Assembly: GCA_963422645.2 (NCBI GenBank) | Contig: CAXXVO010000005.1 | Location: forward strand, 288,001 to 352,000 | Reading direction: 5' to 3' | From: Alphaproteobacteria bacterium | GTDB taxonomy: Bacteria > Pseudomonadota > Alphaproteobacteria > UBA828 | Length of the DNA: 64,000 nucleotides | Part shown: positions 45,554 through 58,033 of the stretch, piece after piece | How the letters are laid out: every line of letters starts with the position of its first letter | How positions within the stretch are numbered: the stretch's first letter is position 1 | Program-made: the position numbers and the translations under genes | The notes under the pieces: generated by a model | What the model was told of the DNA's origin: nothing | Databases searched by the model: none | What the model saw: the letters and a program-made list of their open reading frames with translations, nothing else

Positions 45554-46282
45554 TCAGGAGCGGTTCTTGAAGCGCCAGCTCTCGTTGCCGGTCTCGATGA
45601 TCTCGCAATGATGGGTGAGGCGATCGAGCAGCGCTGTGGTCATCTTGGGGTCGCCGAAGACGGATGGCCATTCGCCGAAGGCGAGGTTTGTGGTGATGAC
45701 GATCGAGGTGCGCTCGTAGAGCCGGCTCATCAGATGGAAGAGCAGCTGCCCACCGGCCTGGGCGAAGGGCAGGTAGCCGAGCTCGTCGAGGATGACGAAG
45801 TCGCGGCGGACGAGCTGGTCTGCAGTGCGGCCCTGGCGTCCGGCGCGAAGCTCGGCCTCGAGGAGGTTGACCAGGTCGACGACGTTGTAGCACCGGCCGC
45901 GCGCGCCCTTGCGGATGCAGGACCGCGCGATGGCGACGGCGAGATGGGTCTTGCCGGTACCGGTGCCGCCGACCAGCACGATGTTGCGTTTGCCCTCGAG
46001 GAAGCCGCCGCCGGCGAGCTCCTGGATCAGGGGCTCGTTGACCGGCGAGGCGGCGAAGTCGAAGTCGGCCAGCTCCTTGACCGTCGGCAGCTTGGCGGAG
46101 GCCATCTGGTACTTGATCGAGCGGGCCCTCTTGTCGGCGATCTCGACCTGCAGCAGCGTACCGATGATCTGTTGCACCGGATGGCGGCGCTTGAGCCCGT
46201 CGGCAAGGATGTCGTCGTAAGCGGCGCGCATACCTGCGAGCTTCAGCTGGGTCATCATCTCCAGCACATCATGACGCTCCAT
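45554..46282 (-). CDS. istB: IS21 helper AAA+ ATPase
   Basis: [34 protein letters not shown]. Confidence 0.97.
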
Positions 46283-47783
46283 GACCGGCCTCCCTCAGGC
46301 TGTCGTAGCGCTGACAGTCGGCTACCGGCTTGTGGCGAAGCTGCAGGCCCTCGGGCGTCGGGATGATTGCCGGCGGTGCCGGCTGGCGCTGCCGGGCGAG
46401 GATGTTGAGCACCACGTCGGCGCTGCAGGCACCGCAGTCGAGCGTCTCGGCACAGGCCGCCTCAACCGCCTCCAGTCCGTCCTCCAGCACCGCCGCGAGC
46501 ACCTTGACGAACTGCCGGTCGCCGTCGTCGTGGCCCGCGAGCCGGGTTCGCAGGCGGCCGAGCGCGTTGGGCAACTGCCAGTCCTTGAAGGGCGCGCCAT
46601 TGCGTAGCGCGCCGGGCTTCCGCGTCAGGATCGGCACGTAATGCCACGGATCGTAGACGAACCGGCCGCGCCCGAAGCTGCGGGGGTGCTCGGCAACGGT
46701 CTCGCCGTCCTGGCGGATGACGATCCGATCGGCATAGGCCCGCACGTCCACCGGCCGGCCGACGGCGCGGGCCGCGACGCTGTACTGGTTGTTGTCGAAG
46801 CGCACCAGACAGGTCTTCGAGACCGACACCTCGCTGGCATGGAAGCCGTCGAAGGGGCCGCGATACGCCATCAGGAAGGGCTGCTCCTCCTCGAACACCT
46901 GCCACACCGTCTTGCCCGGGATTGTCGGATGCGGATGCTTCTTGGCGTCCTCGATGCACCGATCCATCAGCCACTCGTTGATCTCGGCGTAGGAGCGGCC
47001 CCGCGGGATGGGCACGAACAGGCGGCCGCGAAGGTCACCCACCTGCTTCTCGACCTGCCCCTTCTCCCAGCCAGCCCCTGGCGTGCACGCCACAGGCTCC
47101 ACCAGATGGTGCGAGCACAGCTCCTGGAAGCGGCGGTTGTAGTCCCGCTTCTTGCCCACGAAGATCGTGCTCACCGCCGTCTTCATGTTGTCGTAGATGC
47201 CCCGCCGGCAGACCCCGCCGAAGAAGCGGAAGGCACGCTCGTGCGCCTCGAAGACCATCTCCTGGCTCTCGCGGGGAAAGATCTGGACCAGATACATCCG
47301 GCTGTGGCACAGCCGCATGTGCGCCGCCTTCACCCTGGTCGTCGCGCCCGACAGACGCGCGTACTCGTGGCTCCAGTCGAACTGGTAGGCCTCGCCGGGA
47401 TCGAAGATCAGCGGCACATAGGCCTGCGCCGGCGACAACAGCCGCCACCGGCGCCGCCAGGCCCTGGCATAGCGGCGAACCGCGTCATAGCCGCCCTTGT
47501 AGCCCAGCGACACAAGGTCTTCATGAATCCGCAGAAGAGACAGCCGATCCTTGCGTGCCTTCTTCTCGTTGGCCTTCAGCTGGCGCTCAAGCTCCTCCAC
47601 CCACAGCCCAAGCTTCGGCATCGGCTGGATCTTGCGCTCGTAGCTGTGCGAGGTCGCATCGCCCCGCACCACCTTGCGTATCGTGTTCTTGGAAACCCTC
47701 AAATCCCGGGCGAGCTTCTTGATCGGAACGCCCTTCACCAGATGATCCCGACGGATCTTCGCGATCGTTTCCACAACCAGCAT
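46269..47783 (-). CDS. istA: IS21 transposase
   Basis: N-terminal [30 protein letters not shown]. Confidence 0.96.
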
Positions 47784-48085
47784 CTCCCCCACCACCCCGT
47801 CCGTCCAAACGACGAGGTGTGTTCATGGACACAAATCCAAGGGGGTCAATTTTGGACGCCGATCACCCCCAATAGGGGGTCACTTTTCCACGCTTAACAA
47901 CAAACTGCTCGGCGCGGCCGAAGTGAATGGAGCCCGGCCCTGCCGAAGCGGTCGCAGAGTTAAAGAATATGCGTGACCTTGCGGCTTATCTCGTTTCGCG
48001 CGCGGGATATATTGTCTCGGACCGGGGTCTTATCCCGAAGAGGTGTATGAAAGAGCTTATGTGATGCGTCCCGGTAGGGGACACA

Positions 48086-48848: not shown

Positions 48849-50063
48849 TCAAGGCGGCACGGGTCGATCGGTGCCGCTCCCGGCTTTGGAGATCAGGAGA
48901 TCGGCTCCGATGCTGGCGGCAATCAGGGCCGCAGCCTCGTGCATCGAGTCGCGCGCCAGATGGGCGTACCTGGCTGTTGTCTCCATCTGAGTGTGACCGA
49001 GAAGCCGGCCGATAACGGGCAGGCTCTCACCGAGAGCCAGTGCCCGGGAAGCCCAGCTGTGTCTGAGGTCGTGAAGCCGCACGTCCTCAAGCCCGGCTCG
49101 TTTCCTGACGCGATCCCATTGCTTGCTGATGTTGGACAGGCGCTCGCCTAGCCGTCGACTGGCGATCACCCAGGGGTTGCCCGCAACGCGCGGCAGGTCC
49201 GCCAGAACCTTTAGTGCCTCCGGAGACAGCGTCAGTGTGCGGGCGCCCGTCTTGGTGTCGGCGAGGTTCAGCTCGCCCACATCGAGATCGACATCCTCCC
49301 AGCGCAGCATCCCGATTTCGTTGCGCCGGCAGCCGGTCAGCATGAGAAGTCGAAGCGCCGCCGCCGCATGGGGGGACAGGCTGCCTTCAGTCTCCATCTC
49401 GTTGAGCACGCGGCCGAGACGGTCGAACTCTTCGTCGGTCAGGAACCTCTCGCGCCTTTGGCCCCTGTACTTGACCACGAAGCGGCAGGGATTGCCGCCC
49501 TCCGTCGCCACGCCCCAGGTCCCGGCTGCGTTGAACATCCGCGACAGGAAGGCGACCACCGTGTTGGCCATCGCCGGCGTGTCGCGCAGCTTGTAATGGA
49601 GATCGGCGACATGCTCCCGGCTTACAGCGGCGAGAGGCAACGTGCCGAGTGTGGGGAGAATGTGCTTATCGAGCACCATCCGCCACAGGGTACCGGTGTT
49701 CGGTTTGCAGTGGACGATGACATGCTTTTCCAGGTATCGCGCAGAAAACTCGGCCACGGTCGGTTCCGATCCTGGCTTAGGCGCTACTGGTGCGGGGATT
49801 GCGCCCTCGCCTGCCTTGACGCGGGCGATGATCAGCGCTGCCCGCTGGCGCGCCTGCTCTGCTGTAATGACGCCGTGACGGCCCACCGTGACGCGTTTGG
49901 ATTTTCCCTTCGCCCGCGTCTGCACGATGTAGACCTTCGACCCGGAGGGATAGACGCGCACGCCGAAGCCCGGCAACTCGCTGTCCCAATACACCATGTC
50001 CCTCTCGACAGAGAGTGACTCGACCGTTCGCTTCGAGATGCTTCTGCGGTGAAGTTTGGTCAT
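48849..50063 (-). CDS. Tyrosine recombinase/integrase with arm-binding domain
   Basis: WDSELPGFGVRV, TGCRRNE, KTG, HDLRH, LLGH, TARY. Confidence 0.95.
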   Translation of the reverse strand: MTKLHRRSISKRTVESLSVERDMVYWDSELPGFGVRVYPSGSKVYIVQTRAKGKSKRVTVGRHGVITAEQARQRAALIIARVKAGEGAIPAPVAPKPGSEPTVAEFSARYLEKHVIVHCKPNTGTLWRMVLDKHILPTLGTLPLAAVSREHVADLHYKLRDTPAMANTVVAFLSRMFNAAGTWGVATEGGNPCRFVVKYRGQRRERFLTDEEFDRLGRVLNEMETEGSLSPHAAAALRLLMLTGCRRNEIGMLRWEDVDLDVGELNLADTKTGARTLTLSPEALKVLADLPRVAGNPWVIASRRLGERLSNISKQWDRVRKRAGLEDVRLHDLRHSWASRALALGESLPVIGRLLGHTQMETTARYAHLARDSMHEAAALIAASIGADLLISKAGSGTDRPVPP

Positions 50064-50075
50064 CGCAGCCTCCGC

Positions 50076-51290
50076 TTATCCGGTGCTGGCACGCGGGCTC
50101 ACGGGGGAGCTGGCTGCGGATTGCGCCAGGACGTGCGCGCCGATACTTCCACCTACTCTGGCTGCCGACGTCCTCTCCGTCTCGCGCGCCAGATGGGCAT
50201 AACGAGCGGTGGTCGACACCTTCGTGTGGCCAAGGAGCCGACCTATCATTGTGAGACTTACGCCGAGAGCCAGGGCGCGGCTCGCGTAGCTGTGTCTGAA
50301 ATCGTGGATTCGCACATCGTCGAGACCGGCCTGCGATCGAAGCCGATACCAGTGCTCGCGGATCGTCGATAGACGCTGGACGCCCGGCCTGCTGCTGACG
50401 ATGACCCAGGGATTGCCCGGAACGCGGGGAGTGGCCGCGAGCACCTCCCTGACCGTCGGCGTCAACGGCACCGACCGCGGTCCCGTCTTGCCATCGCGGA
50501 TGCGGAGCTCGCCCGCCGTCCGGTCCACGTCGTCCCACCGCAGGAACAGTATCTCGTTCAGCCGGCAGCCGGTGAGCATCAACAGGCGGATGGCCGCAAC
50601 CGCATACACCGACGCGCCGCCCTCGGCCTCGGCCTGGTCCAGCACCTTGCCGAGACGGCGGGTTTCGCCAGGAGAGAGGAAACGCTCGCGTTGCTTCTCC
50701 TTGTAACGGCGCACGGTGCGGCAGGGATTGGCGCCGGCCGGCCGCAGGTCCCAGGCTACGGCCAGAGAGAGCATCTTGCTCAGAATGTCGATCACTCGGT
50801 TGGCCGTGACGGGCTTGGTCCGAAGTGCGTAGTGAAGGGACGAGACATGGGCGGGTTCAACCGTGCGGACCGTCAGGGCGCCCAGGGCGGGAAGGATGTG
50901 TTTGTCGAGGGCGAGGCTGTAGAACCCGGCCGTGGCCGGCTTGCAGTTGACCTCCACGTGGGCGCGCATGAATCTCTCGGCGAGGTCGGCCACGGTGGGC
51001 TCGGGTTGGGCCGGCGCGGGCACCGGGTCCTCGCCGCGCTTGATGCGATCGATGATGGCGGCGGCCTGCTTGCGGGCCTCATCGGCCGTGATTGTCCCGT
51101 GCTGTCCGATGGTGACGCGCTGCGACCCATTGGGCCCCCGGCATTGGATGACATAGGACTTCCGTCCGGAGACGTAGACCCGGACACCGAAACCGGGAAG
51201 GTCACGGTCCCAGTAGAGAGCATCGCTGCCGTCGGCAGGAAGGGCATGGACGGCCCGCTTGGAGATAGTACGGTGTTGTGGTCGCGGCAT
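50076..51290 (-). CDS. Tyrosine recombinase/integrase with arm-binding domain (tandem paralog)
   Basis: WDRDLPGFGVRV, TGCRLNE, KTG, HDFRH, LLGH, TARY. Confidence 0.95.
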   Translation of the reverse strand: MPRPQHRTISKRAVHALPADGSDALYWDRDLPGFGVRVYVSGRKSYVIQCRGPNGSQRVTIGQHGTITADEARKQAAAIIDRIKRGEDPVPAPAQPEPTVADLAERFMRAHVEVNCKPATAGFYSLALDKHILPALGALTVRTVEPAHVSSLHYALRTKPVTANRVIDILSKMLSLAVAWDLRPAGANPCRTVRRYKEKQRERFLSPGETRRLGKVLDQAEAEGGASVYAVAAIRLLMLTGCRLNEILFLRWDDVDRTAGELRIRDGKTGPRSVPLTPTVREVLAATPRVPGNPWVIVSSRPGVQRLSTIREHWYRLRSQAGLDDVRIHDFRHSYASRALALGVSLTMIGRLLGHTKVSTTARYAHLARETERTSAARVGGSIGAHVLAQSAASSPVSPRASTG

Positions 51291-51314
51291 GGTGTGCCCC
51301 GGCGTGTCGCATGC

Positions 51315-51449
51315 GTAATGCTTCCGTTCTCAGGTGATGGATGGTGATTTCACCGATTGAGTGTCCGCTTCCAGTCTCGTCGGAGAGGCCGCAGCCAGAT
51401 GTCCCTCCTGGGCTCGGCCCGCTTCATGTGCGTGTCGTAGCGCCCGCGC
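51315..51449 (-). repeat. Left 135-bp inverted repeat (inverted copy of the right end)
   Basis: Reverse complement of 57546-57680 with one mismatch. Confidence 0.93.
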
Positions 51450-51494
51450 AAAAGCCTCTGGTAACGCCGCCGGTGATTCGATATCGTCTCGCCC

Positions 51495-53933
51495 ATGGCG
51501 ATGCGAGACGAGGATTTCGGGACGGCGCTGACACCGACCGAGGGGGACGAGGCGATCTGGTCGCCCCCCATGTCGGCGCCGGCGAGCGAGCCGCGCGACT
51601 GGCAATCTCTGTGCGAACAGGCGCAGGCGCGGGCGGAAGCAGCGGAAGCGCGTGCGGAAGAGTTGCGCTGGGCGGAAGTCGCCGCCCGCAGCGATGCGGG
51701 TGCGTGGAAGTCGCGGTTCAAGGCCTGCCGGCAGAGGCTGAGCGAGGCCGAGGAAGAGACCGGGGACCTCCGCCGCGCGGCCAAGGACGTGCCGGCCTTG
51801 CAGGCCGAAGTGGCGCACTTGCAGGAGTTGCTCTCCGAAGCCCGCAGCGTATCGAGCGAGTTCGGCACGATCGAAGCGCTGCGCGACGAGGTTGCTCAGT
51901 TGCAAGAGGCCCTGGCGTCGAAAGCCCGGAAGGACGCGACGGGGCCACTGTCGAGGGAGAATGCCCGGCTCCGCAAGACCCTGGAGCGGTCGCAGGGACA
52001 GAAGGACGAGGTCGCGGCGTTGCGCGGAGAGGTCTCGGCGCGGCGCAAGTCGGAGCGGGCCGCGCAGACGGCGCTGTCGAAGGAGAGCATCCGGCTGGGC
52101 AAGGCGCTGGAACGGACGCAGAAGCAGAAGGACACGGTCAAGGCGCTGCGCGAGGAAGTCGATTCCCTGACCCGGGAGACCCGTCGGCAGAACCGGGAGA
52201 ACGGCCGGCTGCGCCGCGAGCTGGAGTGGTTGCAGGGCATCAGGGCGACGGCACGTGGGTTGTCCGACGAGGTCGAGCTGCTGCGCGCGGAACTGGCGGA
52301 ATACCACGACCAGACGAACTTCATCGATTGGCAGGACAGGCGCATCGTCGACTTGCAAATTGCCCTGGATACGTCGGCCTTCAAGACCGAGCGGCTGGAG
52401 GCCGAGCTTGCCGAACGTCCCCTGCTGCCTGCGGCCTTGAAGAGATTGCGCCAGCAGGAGAAGACCATCGAGTCCCTGCGGGCCCGGATCGAGACGCTGG
52501 AAGAGGAGCTGGCCAAGCTGCGCTCGAGCCGGGCCGTCCTGTCGAAGGCGCTCCACGGCAGGAAGAGCGAGCAGCAGCAGAAGCCCGGTACGGGGCGCAA
52601 GCGCGGCCAGCAACGCGGCGCGCCCGGCCACGGCCGCACCCCGCGGCCCAAGCTCCAGGAGAAGAAGGAACGGCGCAACCCGCCGAAGGATGCGCGCATC
52701 TGTTCCTGTTGCGGCAAGCCCTATGTCGCCAACGGCGAACGCTCCACGAGCCTGATCGAGATCGAGGTCAAGGCCCACATCCGCAGGATCGTGCGGCCGC
52801 GCTACCGCCGGGGCTGCGAGTGTGCGTCCTCGCCCCTGGAAGCGATTGCGCCGCCGGTGCCGCGGCTGTTCCCCGGAACGCTCTTCGGAACCAGCTTCTG
52901 GGCACGGTTCCTGTTCGAACACTGTGGGTGTCTGCGCCCGCTGTGCCGGGTCGCCGCGTGGTACGGGGACCAGGGGCTGCCGGTCTCGCCGGGTACGCTG
53001 GCCAACAGCCTGAAGCGCTTCGTGCCGCTGTTCGACCCGCTCTACGAGGCGATCCTCGCGCACCAGAACACCGCGGCGTTGCGCCATGCCGACGAGACCG
53101 GCTGGCGGGTACAGGAGTTCCGCGACACCGGCCGTTCGAGCCGCGCCTGGCTGTGGGTCTCGGTCAGCAAGGATTCGGTCTACTACATCATCGACCCCTC
53201 GCGCAGCGCCGAGGTCGCAAGGACCCTGTTCCGCGACACCGCCTGTATCGTCTTCCTGGTCTGCGACCGCTACAGCGCATACAAAACGCTGGCGCGCGAA
53301 CTCGCCGGCAAGGTGATCCTGTGCTGGTGCTGGGCACATCAGCGACGCGACTTCGTCGACTGCGCGACCGGGCAGGAGGCGCTGACCGAATGGTGCCAGG
53401 AATGGGTCGAGCGGATCGCGCTCGTCTACCACCTGAACGACGAACGGCTGAAGCATTACGACCCCGCTCTCGAACGCCAGACACGGGCCTTCGACGCGGC
53501 GCAGCGCAAGCTCGGAAGGGCGGTCAAGCGCCTGTTCGCGGACGCCGAGGCGGAACTGGCCGGCCTGCCGGACAAGGACCGTCGGGCAAAGCCCTTGCGC
53601 TCGCTGCTCAACCACCGCGAAGGGTTGTGCGTCTTCGTCGACAATCCCCAGGTTCCGATGGACAACAACGCCGGGGAGCGGGCGATCCGCGGGCCGGCCA
53701 TCGGGCGCCGATTGAGCTTCGGTTCCAACAGCGAGGACGGCGCGAAGTTCACCGCGACCATGTACTCCGTCATCGGCACGCTCTCGATGAACGGCATCGA
53801 CGTGCCGCGCTGGCTGGAGGCATGGTTGAAGGCCTGCGCGGAGAATGGCGGCAAACCGCCCGACGACCTGTCCCCATGGCTGCCGTGGACGATGAGCGAG
53901 GCGCGCAGGCGCAAGTTCACGGCGCAGGAATGA
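51495..53933 (+). CDS. tnpC: IS66 transposase with a long N-terminal coiled coil
   Basis: HGRKSE, RGQQRGAPGHGR, Cys pairs, HADETGW, VCDRYSAY, DNNAGERAIR; 812 aa. Confidence 0.92.
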   Translation: MAMRDEDFGTALTPTEGDEAIWSPPMSAPASEPRDWQSLCEQAQARAEAAEARAEELRWAEVAARSDAGAWKSRFKACRQRLSEAEEETGDLRRAAKDVPALQAEVAHLQELLSEARSVSSEFGTIEALRDEVAQLQEALASKARKDATGPLSRENARLRKTLERSQGQKDEVAALRGEVSARRKSERAAQTALSKESIRLGKALERTQKQKDTVKALREEVDSLTRETRRQNRENGRLRRELEWLQGIRATARGLSDEVELLRAELAEYHDQTNFIDWQDRRIVDLQIALDTSAFKTERLEAELAERPLLPAALKRLRQQEKTIESLRARIETLEEELAKLRSSRAVLSKALHGRKSEQQQKPGTGRKRGQQRGAPGHGRTPRPKLQEKKERRNPPKDARICSCCGKPYVANGERSTSLIEIEVKAHIRRIVRPRYRRGCECASSPLEAIAPPVPRLFPGTLFGTSFWARFLFEHCGCLRPLCRVAAWYGDQGLPVSPGTLANSLKRFVPLFDPLYEAILAHQNTAALRHADETGWRVQEFRDTGRSSRAWLWVSVSKDSVYYIIDPSRSAEVARTLFRDTACIVFLVCDRYSAYKTLARELAGKVILCWCWAHQRRDFVDCATGQEALTEWCQEWVERIALVYHLNDERLKHYDPALERQTRAFDAAQRKLGRAVKRLFADAEAELAGLPDKDRRAKPLRSLLNHREGLCVFVDNPQVPMDNNAGERAIRGPAIGRRLSFGSNSEDGAKFTATMYSVIGTLSMNGIDVPRWLEAWLKACAENGGKPPDDLSPWLPWTMSEARRRKFTAQE

Positions 53934-54833
53934 CCGGCGCCATCGAGTGCCGGTACTACGGGCGCGACTTCACCGCCGAGGAGATGGCGCTCCTGCGCGT
54001 GCTCATCGCCGCCGGCCCACCGCCCAACCGCCATGCCCTGTCGAGGGAGTTCTGCCGGCGCATCGGCTGGTTCAAGCCTGACGGCGGGCTCAAGGACATG
54101 ATGGCCAGGGTGACGATGCTGGCCATGCACAAGGACGGCCTGATCGTCCTCCCGCCGCCGAAATGGCCGCGCCCGCCGCGCCCGCCGCGTCGGCCCATGG
54201 TCTTCGGACCCGACACCGAGCCGCCGGTGCATCCGGCGCCGACATCCCTCGACGCGGTTCGCCCGCTCGATCTGCGGCCTGCCGTCCGCTACAGCCGCGA
54301 GGGCAAGCTGTGGAACGAGTTCGTCGCCCGCTACCACTATCTCGGCTACAAGACCCTGGTCGGCGCCCAGATGCGCTACGCCGTCCACGACCGTGACGGC
54401 CGGCCCATCGCCATGCTCGGCTTCAGCACCGCGGCGCGAAAGCTCGCACCCCGCGACCGCTTCATCGGATGGACGCCGCAGTCGCGCGAGAAGAACCTCC
54501 CGCTTGTGATCGACAACCCGAGGTTCCTTATTCTGCCCTGGATCGTCATCCCGAACCTGGGCTCGCACATCCTCTCGCTCGTGCGCCGGCAACTGCCCGG
54601 CGACTGGGAGGCGCGCTTCGGAGCGCGCCCGGTTCTGGTGGAGATGAAGGCTTCATAATGCTTCTCCGTTGTGCAGGTGGGCGGGCGTTTCTACCGCATT
54701 GATAGAAAAGGCGGTTTGGATTCCGTTGTTGCCGCCGCGGCGACCTTTACATCGTGCCGGACGTGATTTTCCAGTATCGCACGTTGGAGGTGCGGATCTG
54801 CATCGGGCGTTTTGCCTGACGGTCCGGGCATGG

Positions 54834-57014
54834 TCACCCCCCATCACCGTTGAGCCCGCGCAGCAGCGGCAGTTCGTCCTCGACCGGCAAACGCACATAC
54901 AGTCCGCGCGTCTTGCCGCGGGTCACATGGCAGCTGTCCAGCCTGCCCGCCTTGATCCGTTCCCAGACCGTCTGCCGCGTGACACCCAGACGATCCATTG
55001 CCACAGCGAGGGGAACAAACCCCTCCGGAGGCGCCTCACGAAAGCGCTCGCGCAAGGTCGGGGTCATCCGGATCCGAAGAGGAGCACCTTCGATATCGGG
55101 CTGGGCAACCGGAACCAGCCCCTCGCGGATCCAGCGATAGATGGTGTCATCCGAGACTCCGATCTCCTTCGCCACATCGGCAACGCCCATGAGCACCGGC
55201 TCGTCCCCGTCGGGCTGGTAGGGCGCAATGCCATGGCGGCGACGCAGGCTGCCAACAAGCTCGGCCGTGAAATCCAGACCCCGTGCTGTGCGCCGTCCCT
55301 GGCGGGTGAGAACCTTCGCGGTCTCCCGGTCGTTGTAAAAGCATGACAGCTTGCGCACGAGCTCGACCGTGCTGCGCTCATCGCGCCGGGGTGTCGGAGA
55401 GCCCGCGAGCATCGGCAAAGTGATCTCGTCGATCTGCCCGCCACGCCAGCGCAATGTTGCCATGATCTCACGCTCCTGTCGCGCAAGCTCGATCGTCACC
55501 TCGTCGAGGAGGCAGGCGAGCAGGCGCTTGCGCTCGCGCATGGTCGTCGACGACGCCCCCCAGACCTGCGACAGGCGCGCGCCGAGACCCTCGAAAACCG
55601 CCGGGGCAGGGGCCGCGGGCTGACGCGCCCGTGCCGCCTCAAGCGCTTCCTGTGCAGCCTTCTCGGCGCGAAGCGCCTTCTCCCACTCGCGCTCCAGCGT
55701 TGCCGCAATCAGACGGTTGTCGGGATCGACCTGCTTGTAGCGCCGCTCGGCAAGCCGCGCCTCGTACCGGCAGTGCTCAAGATCCAGCTCCCAACGGCGC
55801 AACGCGCGCAGGCCGCGTTCAGCAACATCACAAGCCGCCTGCCGGGCCGCCTCCACCCCCGCCGGCGTGACCGCATCGAGAAACAGACGGGCAACTTCCG
55901 CATCAACGCGCTTGCCGCCTGTCGACCAACAACCGCCGCGCCGGCGCGCAGCATCGCGCTTGCGGCACTCATACCCCCAGCCCGTCTTGCTGTAGTAGAC
56001 GGTCATCGGCAATCCGCAGCCGCCGCAGACCGCGAGACCCTGGAGCAGAGCCGACCCTTCCCGCGCCGCGCCGCGGGCTCCGTCCGGAGCCATGTGGTTG
56101 CGGGCCAGCTGCTCCTGTACTTCAAGCCATTCTGCCCAACTGACATATCCCTCATGCTTCTCCGGCTGAAGAATATCCCAGCGCTCCTGGACCGGCCGCA
56201 GCGGCGCACCGTGACCAACGCCGCGTTTGAAGCCGTAGGCATAGGCGCCGCCCATCGCCGGGTTGGTGAGGATGCGGTACACCCGTTCATAGCGCGCCGG
56301 GCCCCATTCCAATGCTGCCCCCGGGTGCCGGCGAGAGGGAACATCCTCGCCCGCCTCACGCAGCAGCATCGTCGCCTGGCGGGCCGAACCGGCTTGCCGA
56401 AAACGCGCAAAGACCGTTGCAATCGCCGCCTGAACCCGGGCATCCGGATCCTTCCGCAAAGTCGAGCCATCCCGCACAAATCCGATCGGAACGCGCGAGT
56501 ACAACTCGCCACGAAGCGCCTTGTTCCGCTTTCCGCCCTCCATCCGGGCGCGAATAAGAGACAGCTCAGCGGCGCTCACGGTTCCCTTGATCCCCAGGAC
56601 AAGGGAGTCGTCGTCCCGGCTCGGGCAGTAGATGTGGCAGTCCTCAACCAGAACCGTGTCGTGCCTGCGACATAGATCGAGAAGCTGAAACCATTCCATC
56701 GTGTTCCTGGCGAGCCGCGAAACCTCAATCCCGAAGATGCCCCCGACATGGTCCCGGGCGATCAGGTCGCACATCTCCCGAAAGCCGCCACGCTCGCCGC
56801 GCGCCTTCTCGCTTGCGCTCTCGCCAAGATCGGCGTCGATCGTCCGTATCCGCTCGGCCGGCCAGCCAATCTCCCGGGCACGCTCGCCAAGCGCGTATTG
56901 GCGCAGCTGCGATTCCTGGTGCGCGTTCACTTGCAAGGGTGTCGACTGGCGAACGTAGACAACTGCAAGACGCTCAAGATGACGCTGGGTGATCTTCGAC
57001 GGATCGACCGTCAT
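54834..57014 (-). CDS. Large serine recombinase (catalytic, recombinase, Zn-ribbon and C-terminal HTH domains)
   Basis: KITQRHLERLAVVYVRQST, DADLGES, EVSRLARN, CGGCG, VDPDNRL; ATG 57014 with GGGAGG upstream. Confidence 0.94.
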   Translation of the reverse strand: MTVDPSKITQRHLERLAVVYVRQSTPLQVNAHQESQLRQYALGERAREIGWPAERIRTIDADLGESASEKARGERGGFREMCDLIARDHVGGIFGIEVSRLARNTMEWFQLLDLCRRHDTVLVEDCHIYCPSRDDDSLVLGIKGTVSAAELSLIRARMEGGKRNKALRGELYSRVPIGFVRDGSTLRKDPDARVQAAIATVFARFRQAGSARQATMLLREAGEDVPSRRHPGAALEWGPARYERVYRILTNPAMGGAYAYGFKRGVGHGAPLRPVQERWDILQPEKHEGYVSWAEWLEVQEQLARNHMAPDGARGAAREGSALLQGLAVCGGCGLPMTVYYSKTGWGYECRKRDAARRRGGCWSTGGKRVDAEVARLFLDAVTPAGVEAARQAACDVAERGLRALRRWELDLEHCRYEARLAERRYKQVDPDNRLIAATLEREWEKALRAEKAAQEALEAARARQPAAPAPAVFEGLGARLSQVWGASSTTMRERKRLLACLLDEVTIELARQEREIMATLRWRGGQIDEITLPMLAGSPTPRRDERSTVELVRKLSCFYNDRETAKVLTRQGRRTARGLDFTAELVGSLRRRHGIAPYQPDGDEPVLMGVADVAKEIGVSDDTIYRWIREGLVPVAQPDIEGAPLRIRMTPTLRERFREAPPEGFVPLAVAMDRLGVTRQTVWERIKAGRLDSCHVTRGKTRGLYVRLPVEDELPLLRGLNGDGG

Positions 57015-57165
57015 CGGCCGCCTCCCGATCCGCAATCCGAACCATCAGATCGGCCAGACCCTGCACGACGCGATCCCGGTCCGGAGCCGGAAACGCCAGC
57101 CACCGGTCCCGGCGCTCCTCCCACTCCATCAGCGCGATCAGCGCCAACTCCTGCTCCGCATCCAT
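56974..57165 (-). CDS. Small hypothetical protein upstream of the recombinase
   Basis: MDAEQELAL...WLAFPAPDRDRVVQGLADLMVR, helical; overlaps the recombinase start. Confidence 0.5.
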   Translation of the reverse strand: MDAEQELALIALMEWEERRDRWLAFPAPDRDRVVQGLADLMVRIADREAADDGRSVEDHPASS

Positions 57166-57469
57166 CGCGCCTGAGTTCCCTCTCATCAAGGTCATTCAGA
57201 AGATTAAGGAGGGTGAGGAAATCAGACAACTCTCCGATCAGGCGTGGTGCATCCTCGGGACGGGCTCCAAGGCTCGTCCATGCCGCTGGTATCCAACAAC
57301 AGCTGCCGTCCGGCATCCGAACCTTCAGAGTCCGGCCCCCGTAACCTCCTTTGCGCCGATCGAGAATCTCGATCGCCTCACCGTCGAAAGGATGCTTGTA
57401 GCGTCGAATGCGAACGGGCTCAGGAGCCTCGGAAGCCTGCAAGATAGTAGTCTGTGACGTTCGTGGAGA
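57011..57469 (-). CDS. Accessory ORF (DUF5372 / Y4bD-like); no SD-supported start in the integrated state
   Basis: VRIRRYKHPFDGEAIEIL...MPDGSCCWIPAAWT; TGA overlaps the recombinase ATG (ATGA); frame is open through the GTGGAGA core. Confidence 0.65.
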   Translation of the reverse strand, partial: SPRTSQTTILQASEAPEPVRIRRYKHPFDGEAIEILDRRKGGYGGRTLKVRMPDGSCCWIPAAWTSLGARPEDAPRLIGELSDFLTLLNLLNDLDERELRRDGCGAGVGADRADGVGGAPGPVAGVSGSGPGSRRAGSGRSDGSDCGSGGGR

Positions 57470-57545
57470 CCTTCGTCGAGACGCCCCGCTACACCGGCGC
57501 CGTCTACAAGGCATCCGGCTGGATCCGCGTCGGGACCACCCAGGG

Positions 57546-57680
57546 GCGCGGGCGCTACGACACGCACATGAAGCGGGCCGAGCCCAGGAAGGACATCTGG
57601 CTGCGGCCTCTCCGACGAGACTGGAAGCGGACACTCAATCGGTGAAATCACCATCCATCACCTGAGAACGGAAGCATTAC
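57546..57680 (+). repeat. Right 135-bp inverted repeat, including the DUF4338 3' end
   Basis: Ends ...GGAAGCATTAC, followed by the TSD. Confidence 0.93.
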
Positions 57681-58033
57681 TCGCATGCGCCCCTCGCGCC
57701 TATGGCGGCGAGTAAGCGGACCGCAAGCGAGTGATGTCGAGCGTGCGAGTATTGGAGCGTAGGATTGTGACGAGCGCAAGGGAGAATTGGGCCGGGGCGG
57801 AAACGAAAGATGCGACAGAACAGCTAGTTATCGTATACACGCGTACCGCGGCGTACTCGTGACATAGAGGGATTTCACGGAATCACAATTATATTCCTCA
57901 AGCGCCGGGCGCGCGCACCAGGCTGCTTCGCGACCCGGTCTTGCCCGTGTCAAATGTCCCGCGGTTGCCGCCGGCGCTCTTGTTGTCAGTGCACGCTTCC
58001 ATGGCATACTGAAGTCGAGACGGGAGACTGCCG

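Follow-up and report, generated by a model that had tools for sequence, protein, structure and literature searches.

A cargo-less serine-recombinase element at a conserved motif of GNAT-like genes borne by insertion sequences in an alphaproteobacterium

In the assembly GCA_963422645.2 of an Alphaproteobacteria bacterium (GTDB lineage UBA828), a gene with a DUF4338 (DruA) domain is split in two by 2825 bp of DNA encoding a large serine recombinase (LSR), and the locus raises the question of what such an insertion is doing inside this particular gene. The original prediction, made on the window analysed here (64,000 nt, positions 288,001 to 352,000 of contig CAXXVO010000005.1; coordinates without a contig prefix are window positions), offered two answers: an excision-controlled switch of a defence-associated gene, or an element that parasitises a conserved motif in another transposon. 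We consider the inserted element to be, very probably, a cargo-less LSR transposon of TndX/TnpX-like kind, specialised on a protein-constrained motif of GNAT genes borne by insertion sequences (ISs), and also riding on its host ISs. The interrupted gene and the ends of the element are arranged as follows.

53930 to 54644, plus strand: 5' part of the DUF4338/GNAT-like accessory gene; its frame now stops at 54658, after four codons from the element.
54641 to 54644: GAGA core of attL, the only bases common to all left junctions and the right end of the element.
54645 to 57469, minus strand: inserted element, 2825 bp with one core copy counted in.
57466 to 57469: GAGA core of attR, at the right junction.
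57470 to 57645, plus strand: 3' part of the DUF4338/GNAT-like gene, from Pfam and scripted joining.

Both parts of the gene are recognised by Pfam. The 5' part (53930-54644) covers positions 56-178 of the DruA/DUF4338 profile (E 1.2e-27) and the 3' part, as read from 57454 to 57642, covers positions 186-225 with a match (E 2.8e-4) that alone is below the gathering score. Scripted joining of 53930-54644 with 57470-57645 gives an open reading frame (ORF) of 891 nt and 296 amino acids (aa) with one stop, the terminal one, and this joined product is identical at 243 of 296 positions to an uninterrupted copy on contig C13 of the same genome. The anatomy originally proposed, an insert of 2825 bp that is bounded by GTGGAGA repeats, whose removal restores an intact 296-aa frame and whose recombinase looks intact, is therefore upheld by the positions and Pfam matches, by the joining, and by a 733-aa recombinase ORF which has the motif YVRQST and no internal stop. 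Only the extent of the repeat needs revision. GTGGAGA occurs at both junctions here (54638-54644 and 57463-57469), but it is common to the left flank and the right end of the element in two flank types only, whereas GAGA is found in all. The crossover is presumed to take place inside this GAGA core.

The remaining copies in the genome show how specific the insertion is. When the whole assembly was searched by BLAST with the 2825-bp element, 16 pieces at 99.9-100% identity were returned, which represent 11 left ends and 10 right ends; seven copies are uninterrupted, and the remainder are truncated or cut by further insertions. In DUF4338 coding sequence, one codon boundary, …E|TFV…, accounts for all 11 left and all 10 right junctions, so that the comparison of targets which had been suggested as a check revealed no unrelated target in this genome. 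The recombinase is antisense to the target gene in every copy, which corresponds to a single orientation. The flanks fall into five left and four right types, and GAGA alone is common to all 21 junctions; it also stands at the junctions of the relatives L043, L044 and L048 described below. As in TndX/TnpX-type elements, a GA-containing core is shared and there is no target duplication beyond it. Because identical ends recur with practically the same 2825 bp (~100% identity), and because empty sites exist, the boundaries of the element are no chance repeat.

Six of the copies are located in an IS4-type host, two in the IS66-type host of the window and three in three other IS66-type variants. 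Insertion truncates the GNAT gene, and where DUF4338 is fused to the IS4-type transposase, the ORF of the latter is severed as well. The IS4-type host is ~2.5 kb long with 30-nt inverted repeats, and its one long ORF combines an N-terminal DUF4338 domain (PF14236, 7.3e-25) with an IS4-family transposase (PF01609; NF033592 at 156.7 bits, cut-off 115). An example is C3:135094-137591 (L056:795-3292), and it is found at 18 further places. Thirteen IS4-type copies are empty at the site, and occupied and empty IS4-type hosts could not be told apart by a comparison of single-nucleotide polymorphisms among the copies. The N-terminal part of the ORF in the IS4-type host shifts frame at a four-G run (L056:1395-1415); since the IS copies differ by 1-6 gaps, this change may be a homopolymer error of the assembly and no programmed shift.

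These observations bear directly on the idea of a gene switch, in which a domesticated, excision-controlled interruption would toggle the GNAT gene, and in the IS4 fusions the transposase too, for the cell or for the host IS. The precision of the insertion, the 296-aa frame that excision would reopen, the intact recombinase in six copies, its excisionase-type helix-turn-helix (HTH) and the presence of occupied and empty targets side by side all speak for it, and a gene split by an LSR element that excision would restore is likewise found in skin/SpoIVCA, SPbeta/SprA and fdxN/XisF. However, the latter elements are single-copy insertions into a chromosomal developmental gene that is needed after excision, and are often immobile, whereas here 11 copies occupy at least five flank contexts in two unrelated IS families and every interrupted gene belongs to a mobile element. 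The same target is used in other taxa, the recombinase reaches 68.2 bits on the XisF equivalog model (NF041201), whose cut-off is 375, and no regulated excision was seen in the assembled contigs of four sequencing runs. We therefore regard a gene switch as very improbable.

The host IS of the window can be delimited exactly, and its features are given here.

51307 to 51314: left target-site duplication of 8 bp, TCGCATGC; the right copy is at 57681-57688.
51315 to 51449: left terminal inverted repeat, 135 nt, 99% complementary to 57546-57680.
51495 to 53933, plus strand: IS66-family transposase, 812 aa, open (PF03050, E 3.9e-58; NF033517 at 288 bits, cut-off 180).
57546 to 57680: right terminal inverted repeat, 135 nt, which holds the last ~100 nt of the DUF4338 ORF.

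This IS spans 51315-57680, or 3541 bp without the insert, and has the DDE transposase, the terminal repeats and, at three copies, the 8-bp duplications of the IS66 family. The search for uninterrupted copies of the host transposon that was originally recommended was successful: the copy on contig C13 (C13:253005-256536) is 96% identical and has an 8-bp duplication of its own. In canonical IS66 elements, tnpA and tnpB precede the transposase gene as accessory genes; neither is present in this host IS, the 3541 bp of which accommodate only the transposase and the DUF4338 gene. The inverted repeats are unusually long, and because the right one includes the end of the DUF4338 ORF, the left terminus bears a mirrored copy of that gene end. 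The start codon of the DUF4338 gene overlaps the stop of the transposase (ATGA), and the gene is translationally coupled to the transposase.

The split gene is thus an accessory gene of an IS66-family IS and no Druantia defence gene. It lies between the inverted repeats of the IS with only a transposase beside it and without DruB-E or DruH-E genes. The PADLOC DruA model matches it weakly (18.9 bits, E 1.6e-4), although the Pfam DruA domain itself is present. For these reasons, and given the multiple copies of the element in several IS lineages, the excision-controlled defence switch of the original prediction is not supported. DUF4338 is termed a GNAT acetyltransferase domain in PMC10853773. 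An AlphaFold model of the split gene is of low confidence (pLDDT 60.7), and its Foldseek matches in the PDB are weak (best E 1.3e-3, TM 0.25/0.38), but all those listed are GNAT enzymes; in this low-confidence model the insertion point would fall in a strand (232-238) ahead of a helix (245-250). Among 8000 candidates, at least 5186 proteins are IS66-associated DUF4338 homologues at E ≤ 1e-5, the best 120 of which are 78-92% identical and mostly 293 aa long. DUF4338-IS4 fusions number 940 proteins at E ≤ 1e-5, two of those listed being named 'IS4 family transposase' by NCBI. These numbers point to the 'DruA' domain as a module chiefly of transposons, and the label 'DruA' beside a transposase should therefore not be taken as a sign of defence.

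Relatives of the element in other genomes share the target. A scan with one genome per species revealed two close relatives, L043 and L044. The former, in a metagenome-assembled genome (MAG) of Thalassobaculaceae, has 92.5% DNA identity over element positions 1-1950, and its position 1 adjoins a DUF4338 fragment that ends in '…LLAE'; the latter, in a MAG of Paracoccaceae, is degraded and ~93% identical, and its position 1 adjoins a DUF4338 fragment ending in '…PVLIE'. A metagenome contig (L048) encodes a recombinase with 74% aa identity, and the right end of its element reads …GAGA|CCTTCGT, with seven target bases before the contig edge. Consequently, as L043, L044 and L048 all join DUF4338 at the same site, three of three close outside relatives share the target. 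Together with the 11 of 11 left junctions at E|TFV, this supports the alternative originally proposed, an element that parasitises a conserved motif of another transposon. The element in L043 is cut off at its position 1950 by three tyrosine-recombinase-like ORFs in a row.

The right end of the element (57445-57469) contains an in-frame stop that is followed by a GTG and by codons which, read in phase with the downstream part of the gene, spell '…TFVE', and the right end in L048 has the same arrangement of stop, GTG and codons, with '…VLVE'. The right end of the element thus mimics the left half of the target, and translation of the 3' part could restart there.

The genes of the element itself are few.

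54834 to 57035, minus strand: large serine recombinase, 733 aa, with a TTG start and an ATG seven codons further in.
56974 to 57195, minus strand: small ORF B, 73 aa, without Pfam family, 49% identical over 43 aa in L048.
57179 to 57442, minus strand: small ORF A, DUF5372-like, starting ~20 bp inside the right end.

The recombinase has the catalytic domain of large serine recombinases (PF00239 Resolvase, E 8.7e-17, residues 24-177), followed in the Pfam results by PF07508 Recombinase (E 2.5e-10, 41 bits, cut-off 21.1), a Zn-ribbon (PF13408) at 24.2 bits, slightly below its cut-off of 25.3, and the C-terminal excisionase-type HTH (PF12728). It matches the 'integrase' family phrog_95 over residues 20-537 (E 5.8e-43). 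The best match among solved structures is the catalytic domain of a 'putative conjugative transposon recombinase' (E 5.6e-5), and SprA (YokA) of SPbeta is also among these matches (E 1.9e-4). The recombinase ORFs of the copies in this genome comprise six that are intact and identical, two with one TAA, two that are frameshifted and one that is short at its N-terminus. On homology and anatomy, the recombinase most likely works in a mode like that of TndX and TnpX, an assignment of kind that does not file it in their clade. ORF A resembles DUF5372 (PF17342, E 0.0021) with 18.5 bits, under the cut-off, and shares 46% identity over 84 aa with its counterpart in L048; where it truly ends is uncertain because the frame remains open to 57011. 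Both small ORFs may encode accessory or directionality factors. Terminators in the element are no more frequent than in shuffled controls, and a search of the element with Rfam returned nothing beyond one sub-threshold snoRNA-like match.

The flanks of the copies provide insight into how the element has spread, and one further feature is needed here.

54608 to 54644, plus strand: foreign tract of 37 bp adjoining the element, identical at 37/37 positions to the IS4-type host and at 18-21/37 to three IS66-type copies.

The peptide encoded by this tract is of the pattern seen in the IS4-fused subfamily and is unlike that of the IS66-type, of which the homologues listed carry …DWTERYNTTPVLIE or close variants at this place. 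Both IS66-type copies that have the tract also have the element, and they have different 8-bp duplications, TCGCATGC in the window and ATAGGGGT on contig C8. Host IS and element have therefore moved together as one composite, a movement for which the split GNAT gene is dispensable in cis. An occupied IS4-type copy on C10 likewise has a duplication of its own. We read the 37-bp tract, from the sequence comparison, as a probable exchange of flanks between IS families that is linked to the element; a clean serine-recombinase reaction would leave the flanking DNA unmoved. Its simplest origin would be a gene conversion with its start within the 2.8 kb common to the copies and its end in a conserved block of 15 bp, and such homology-dependent co-conversion may have happened as the element passed from a host of IS4-type to one of IS66-type. 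Within the tract (54612-54631) there is a perfect 8-bp stem with a TCGG loop (GGCGCGCT / AGCGCGCC).

However, we also have to consider that the element might be a passive passenger, derived from a single ancient insertion and spread by composite ISs and by recombination or gene conversion, so that the shared position would reflect common descent. The 37/37 IS4-type tract beside the element in an IS66-type host is what such a history would leave behind, and so are the different target duplications of the two composites and the two frameshifted element copies in different hosts. The host at C8:743390 is mosaic in the same sense, being identical to the window host at 242/242 positions on the left and at 133/189 on the right. 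Against this, the two main host families, IS66-type and IS4-type, agree at only 136/242 and 86/189 positions in their wider flanks, which are thus a poor substrate for homologous exchange. The relative with 74% aa identity and the same junction indicates an old association, and yet the ends of the element are exact, as all 21 ends are to the base. Six identical, intact recombinase genes are, moreover, as expected of an active enzyme. Passive spread as the whole explanation consequently appears unlikely to us.

If the element is a specialised LSR transposon, as we prefer, the recombinase would excise it to a circle, as is known for its family, and the crossover would be of the GA type within GAGA, as in TndX and TnpX. 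The circle would then integrate into a new DUF4338 site in one orientation, with GAGA spanning the Glu-Thr codons of the '…PVL(V/I)E|TFV…' strand. As a second route, the element is carried along by the transposing host IS, as the two composites with different duplications show. Many safe landing sites and extra mobility result from this choice of target, because protein selection fixes the target and the host ISs are numerous and mobile.

A stronger version of the same idea is an obligate hyperparasite of GNAT-bearing ISs. Its victims could not change the motif without damage to the protein, the insertion would disable their GNAT gene or, in the IS4 fusions, the transposase itself and so act as a brake on transposition in an IS-rich genome, and spread between unrelated IS families would be partly homing-like, co-converting tens of bases of the flank, with the 37-bp tract as its footprint. 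We put this forward tentatively, as a possibility that is rather doubtful at present.

Several observations weigh against a specialised, currently mobile LSR transposon. In the assembled Logan contigs of the runs X2, X4, X6 and X7, which cannot reveal rare forms, there is no excision joint for the flanks of this copy, and neither its circle junction nor its empty form was seen. The element was found without promoter-like (sigma-70-like) sites, and the computed circle junction has no promoter hexamer pair with 8/12 matches; the missing promoter matters because the operon of ORF A, ORF B and the recombinase begins ~20 bp from the right end. No clear dyad symmetry was visible by eye in the att arms, and DUF4368, a marker of the multi-targeting TndX-like clade, is absent among the 13 Pfam matches of the recombinase (E up to 0.01). 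The close relatives L043 and L044 are truncated relics. The identical C13 target in the same genome is unoccupied, and occupancy is thus not saturating. Homologous exchange is active here, as flanks are mosaic and have been swapped between two copies, and part of the copy number may result from composite transposition or recombination and not from independent integrations.

The swap just mentioned concerns the occupied IS4-type copies C5:338963-333642 and C6:279425-284745, in which the left duplication of one equals the right of the other, as expected after recombination between two copies, i.e., a large rearrangement. The contigs of X2, X4, X6 and X7 further contain loose ends that match empty sites of other host types, and those of X7 one joint from 54573 to 57466 that belongs to a diverged host. 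The second IS66-type composite (C8:580323-601633) has ~14 kb of further insertion in the host IS and ~1 kb in the element, with a TAA in the recombinase; nesting at this locus is four levels deep.

Among the closest known systems is Tn5397. Its recombinase TndX depends on a central GA in the target and favours sequences that code for a Fic domain, and neither TnpX nor TndX needs a helper for integration or excision (PMC4430133 and PMC2475636). The likeness lies in the GA-containing core, here GAGA, and in a target that encodes a conserved part of a protein, a Fic domain there and a GNAT strand here. In contrast, Tn5397 belongs to Firmicutes and is a conjugative transposon of 21 kb that confers tetracycline resistance, whereas the present element is of 2.8 kb, cargo-less, multi-copy and alphaproteobacterial. 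Unlike TndX, its recombinase has a C-terminal excisionase-type HTH and no DUF4368, its target gene is IS-borne, and the sequence relation is distant.

In TnpX, the target resembles the joint of the circular form (PMC2475636). A comparable resemblance between the right arm of the present element and the left half of its target, on visual reading, recalls TnpX of Tn4451/Tn4453. Tn4451 bears resistance and mobilisation genes, whereas this element is without cargo, and to our knowledge Tn4451 has no specialisation on a gene of another transposon. A precedent for an IS that targets another transposon is known in IS4321 and IS5075 of the IS1111 group, whose insertion sites are the terminal repeats of transposons of the Tn21 family. 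These have an RNA-guided DEDD transposase and a non-coding inverted repeat as target, unlike the serine recombinase and coding-motif target found here.

According to PMC10083194, many LSR clusters of Durrant et al. 2022 use a single conserved site within one gene family, and DUF4368 occurs in 63% of the members of the multi-targeting clade. The LSR elements of that survey are mostly phages, integrative and conjugative elements or integrative and mobilisable elements in chromosomal genes, whereas here the target is IS-borne. The terms DUF5372, DUF4338, PF14236 and DDE_Tnp_IS66 are absent from six supplements of the same paper. In our literature searches no publication came up that describes a serine-recombinase element with IS genes as its target; the term 'DUF5372' was unmatched, and the papers naming 'DUF4338' are, judged by their titles, not on insertion sequences. 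The element differs from the known cases in the absence of cargo, in its IS-like size and copy number, in its C-terminal HTH and in its specialisation on a gene of other transposons.

More distant recombinases are widespread, but they lack this specialisation. In 60 related genomes the best recombinase matches are 35-43% identical, with 3-6 copies per genome in the same genus, and in 400 other genomes of the class one recombinase was found at E ≤ 1e-130, with 43% identity. Among 26 distant-recombinase loci, one has a nearby DUF4338 match, which is uninterrupted, and none has a split DUF4338 gene. A plasmid collection yielded 469 records, all with matches below 60% identity and mostly from rhizobia, and the three plasmid contexts inspected showed no DUF4338 target. 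The LSR elements of the genomes G008, G009, G020, G005 and G011 (L060-L078) occur in 3-6 copies per genome with unrelated flanks. For the multi-copy relatives in G020, three of three flank pairs are unrelated. The shared sequence of related elements measures ~3.0-3.4 kb (checked in G020, G005 and one family of G009). Three of the four genomes searched (G008, G009 and G020) have a clear DUF5372 gene (55-76 bits) at a distance of ~1 kb on the upstream side of the related recombinase, and no such gene was found in the fourth, G005. These elements with an LSR and DUF5372 are an undescribed IS-like family. They resemble the present element in being multi-copy, but differ from it in flanks that are mutually unrelated; as the flanks in G020, G005 and G009 show, the specialisation on a target is therefore no trait of the wider family.

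In the window, two tandem 404-aa tyrosine integrases with arm-binding domains (48849-51290, minus strand) adjoin the left end of the host IS, and an IS21-type pair at 45554-47795 (minus strand) consists of an IstB-like ATPase (PF01695, 3.2e-75) and an rve/Mu-C transposase. The region around the host IS is a pile-up of mobile elements.

For the biology of this genome, the locus represents a nesting of selfish DNA on three levels, i.e., genome, insertion sequence and recombinase element, in which the innermost layer picks its target by a protein-constrained coding motif that is common to two unrelated transposon families. As far as the sequence can tell, its recombinase is a compact, apparently self-sufficient LSR with naturally defined donor and target sites. 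If it is true that the element lowers the activity of its host ISs, it would serve as a natural control on the load of transposons.

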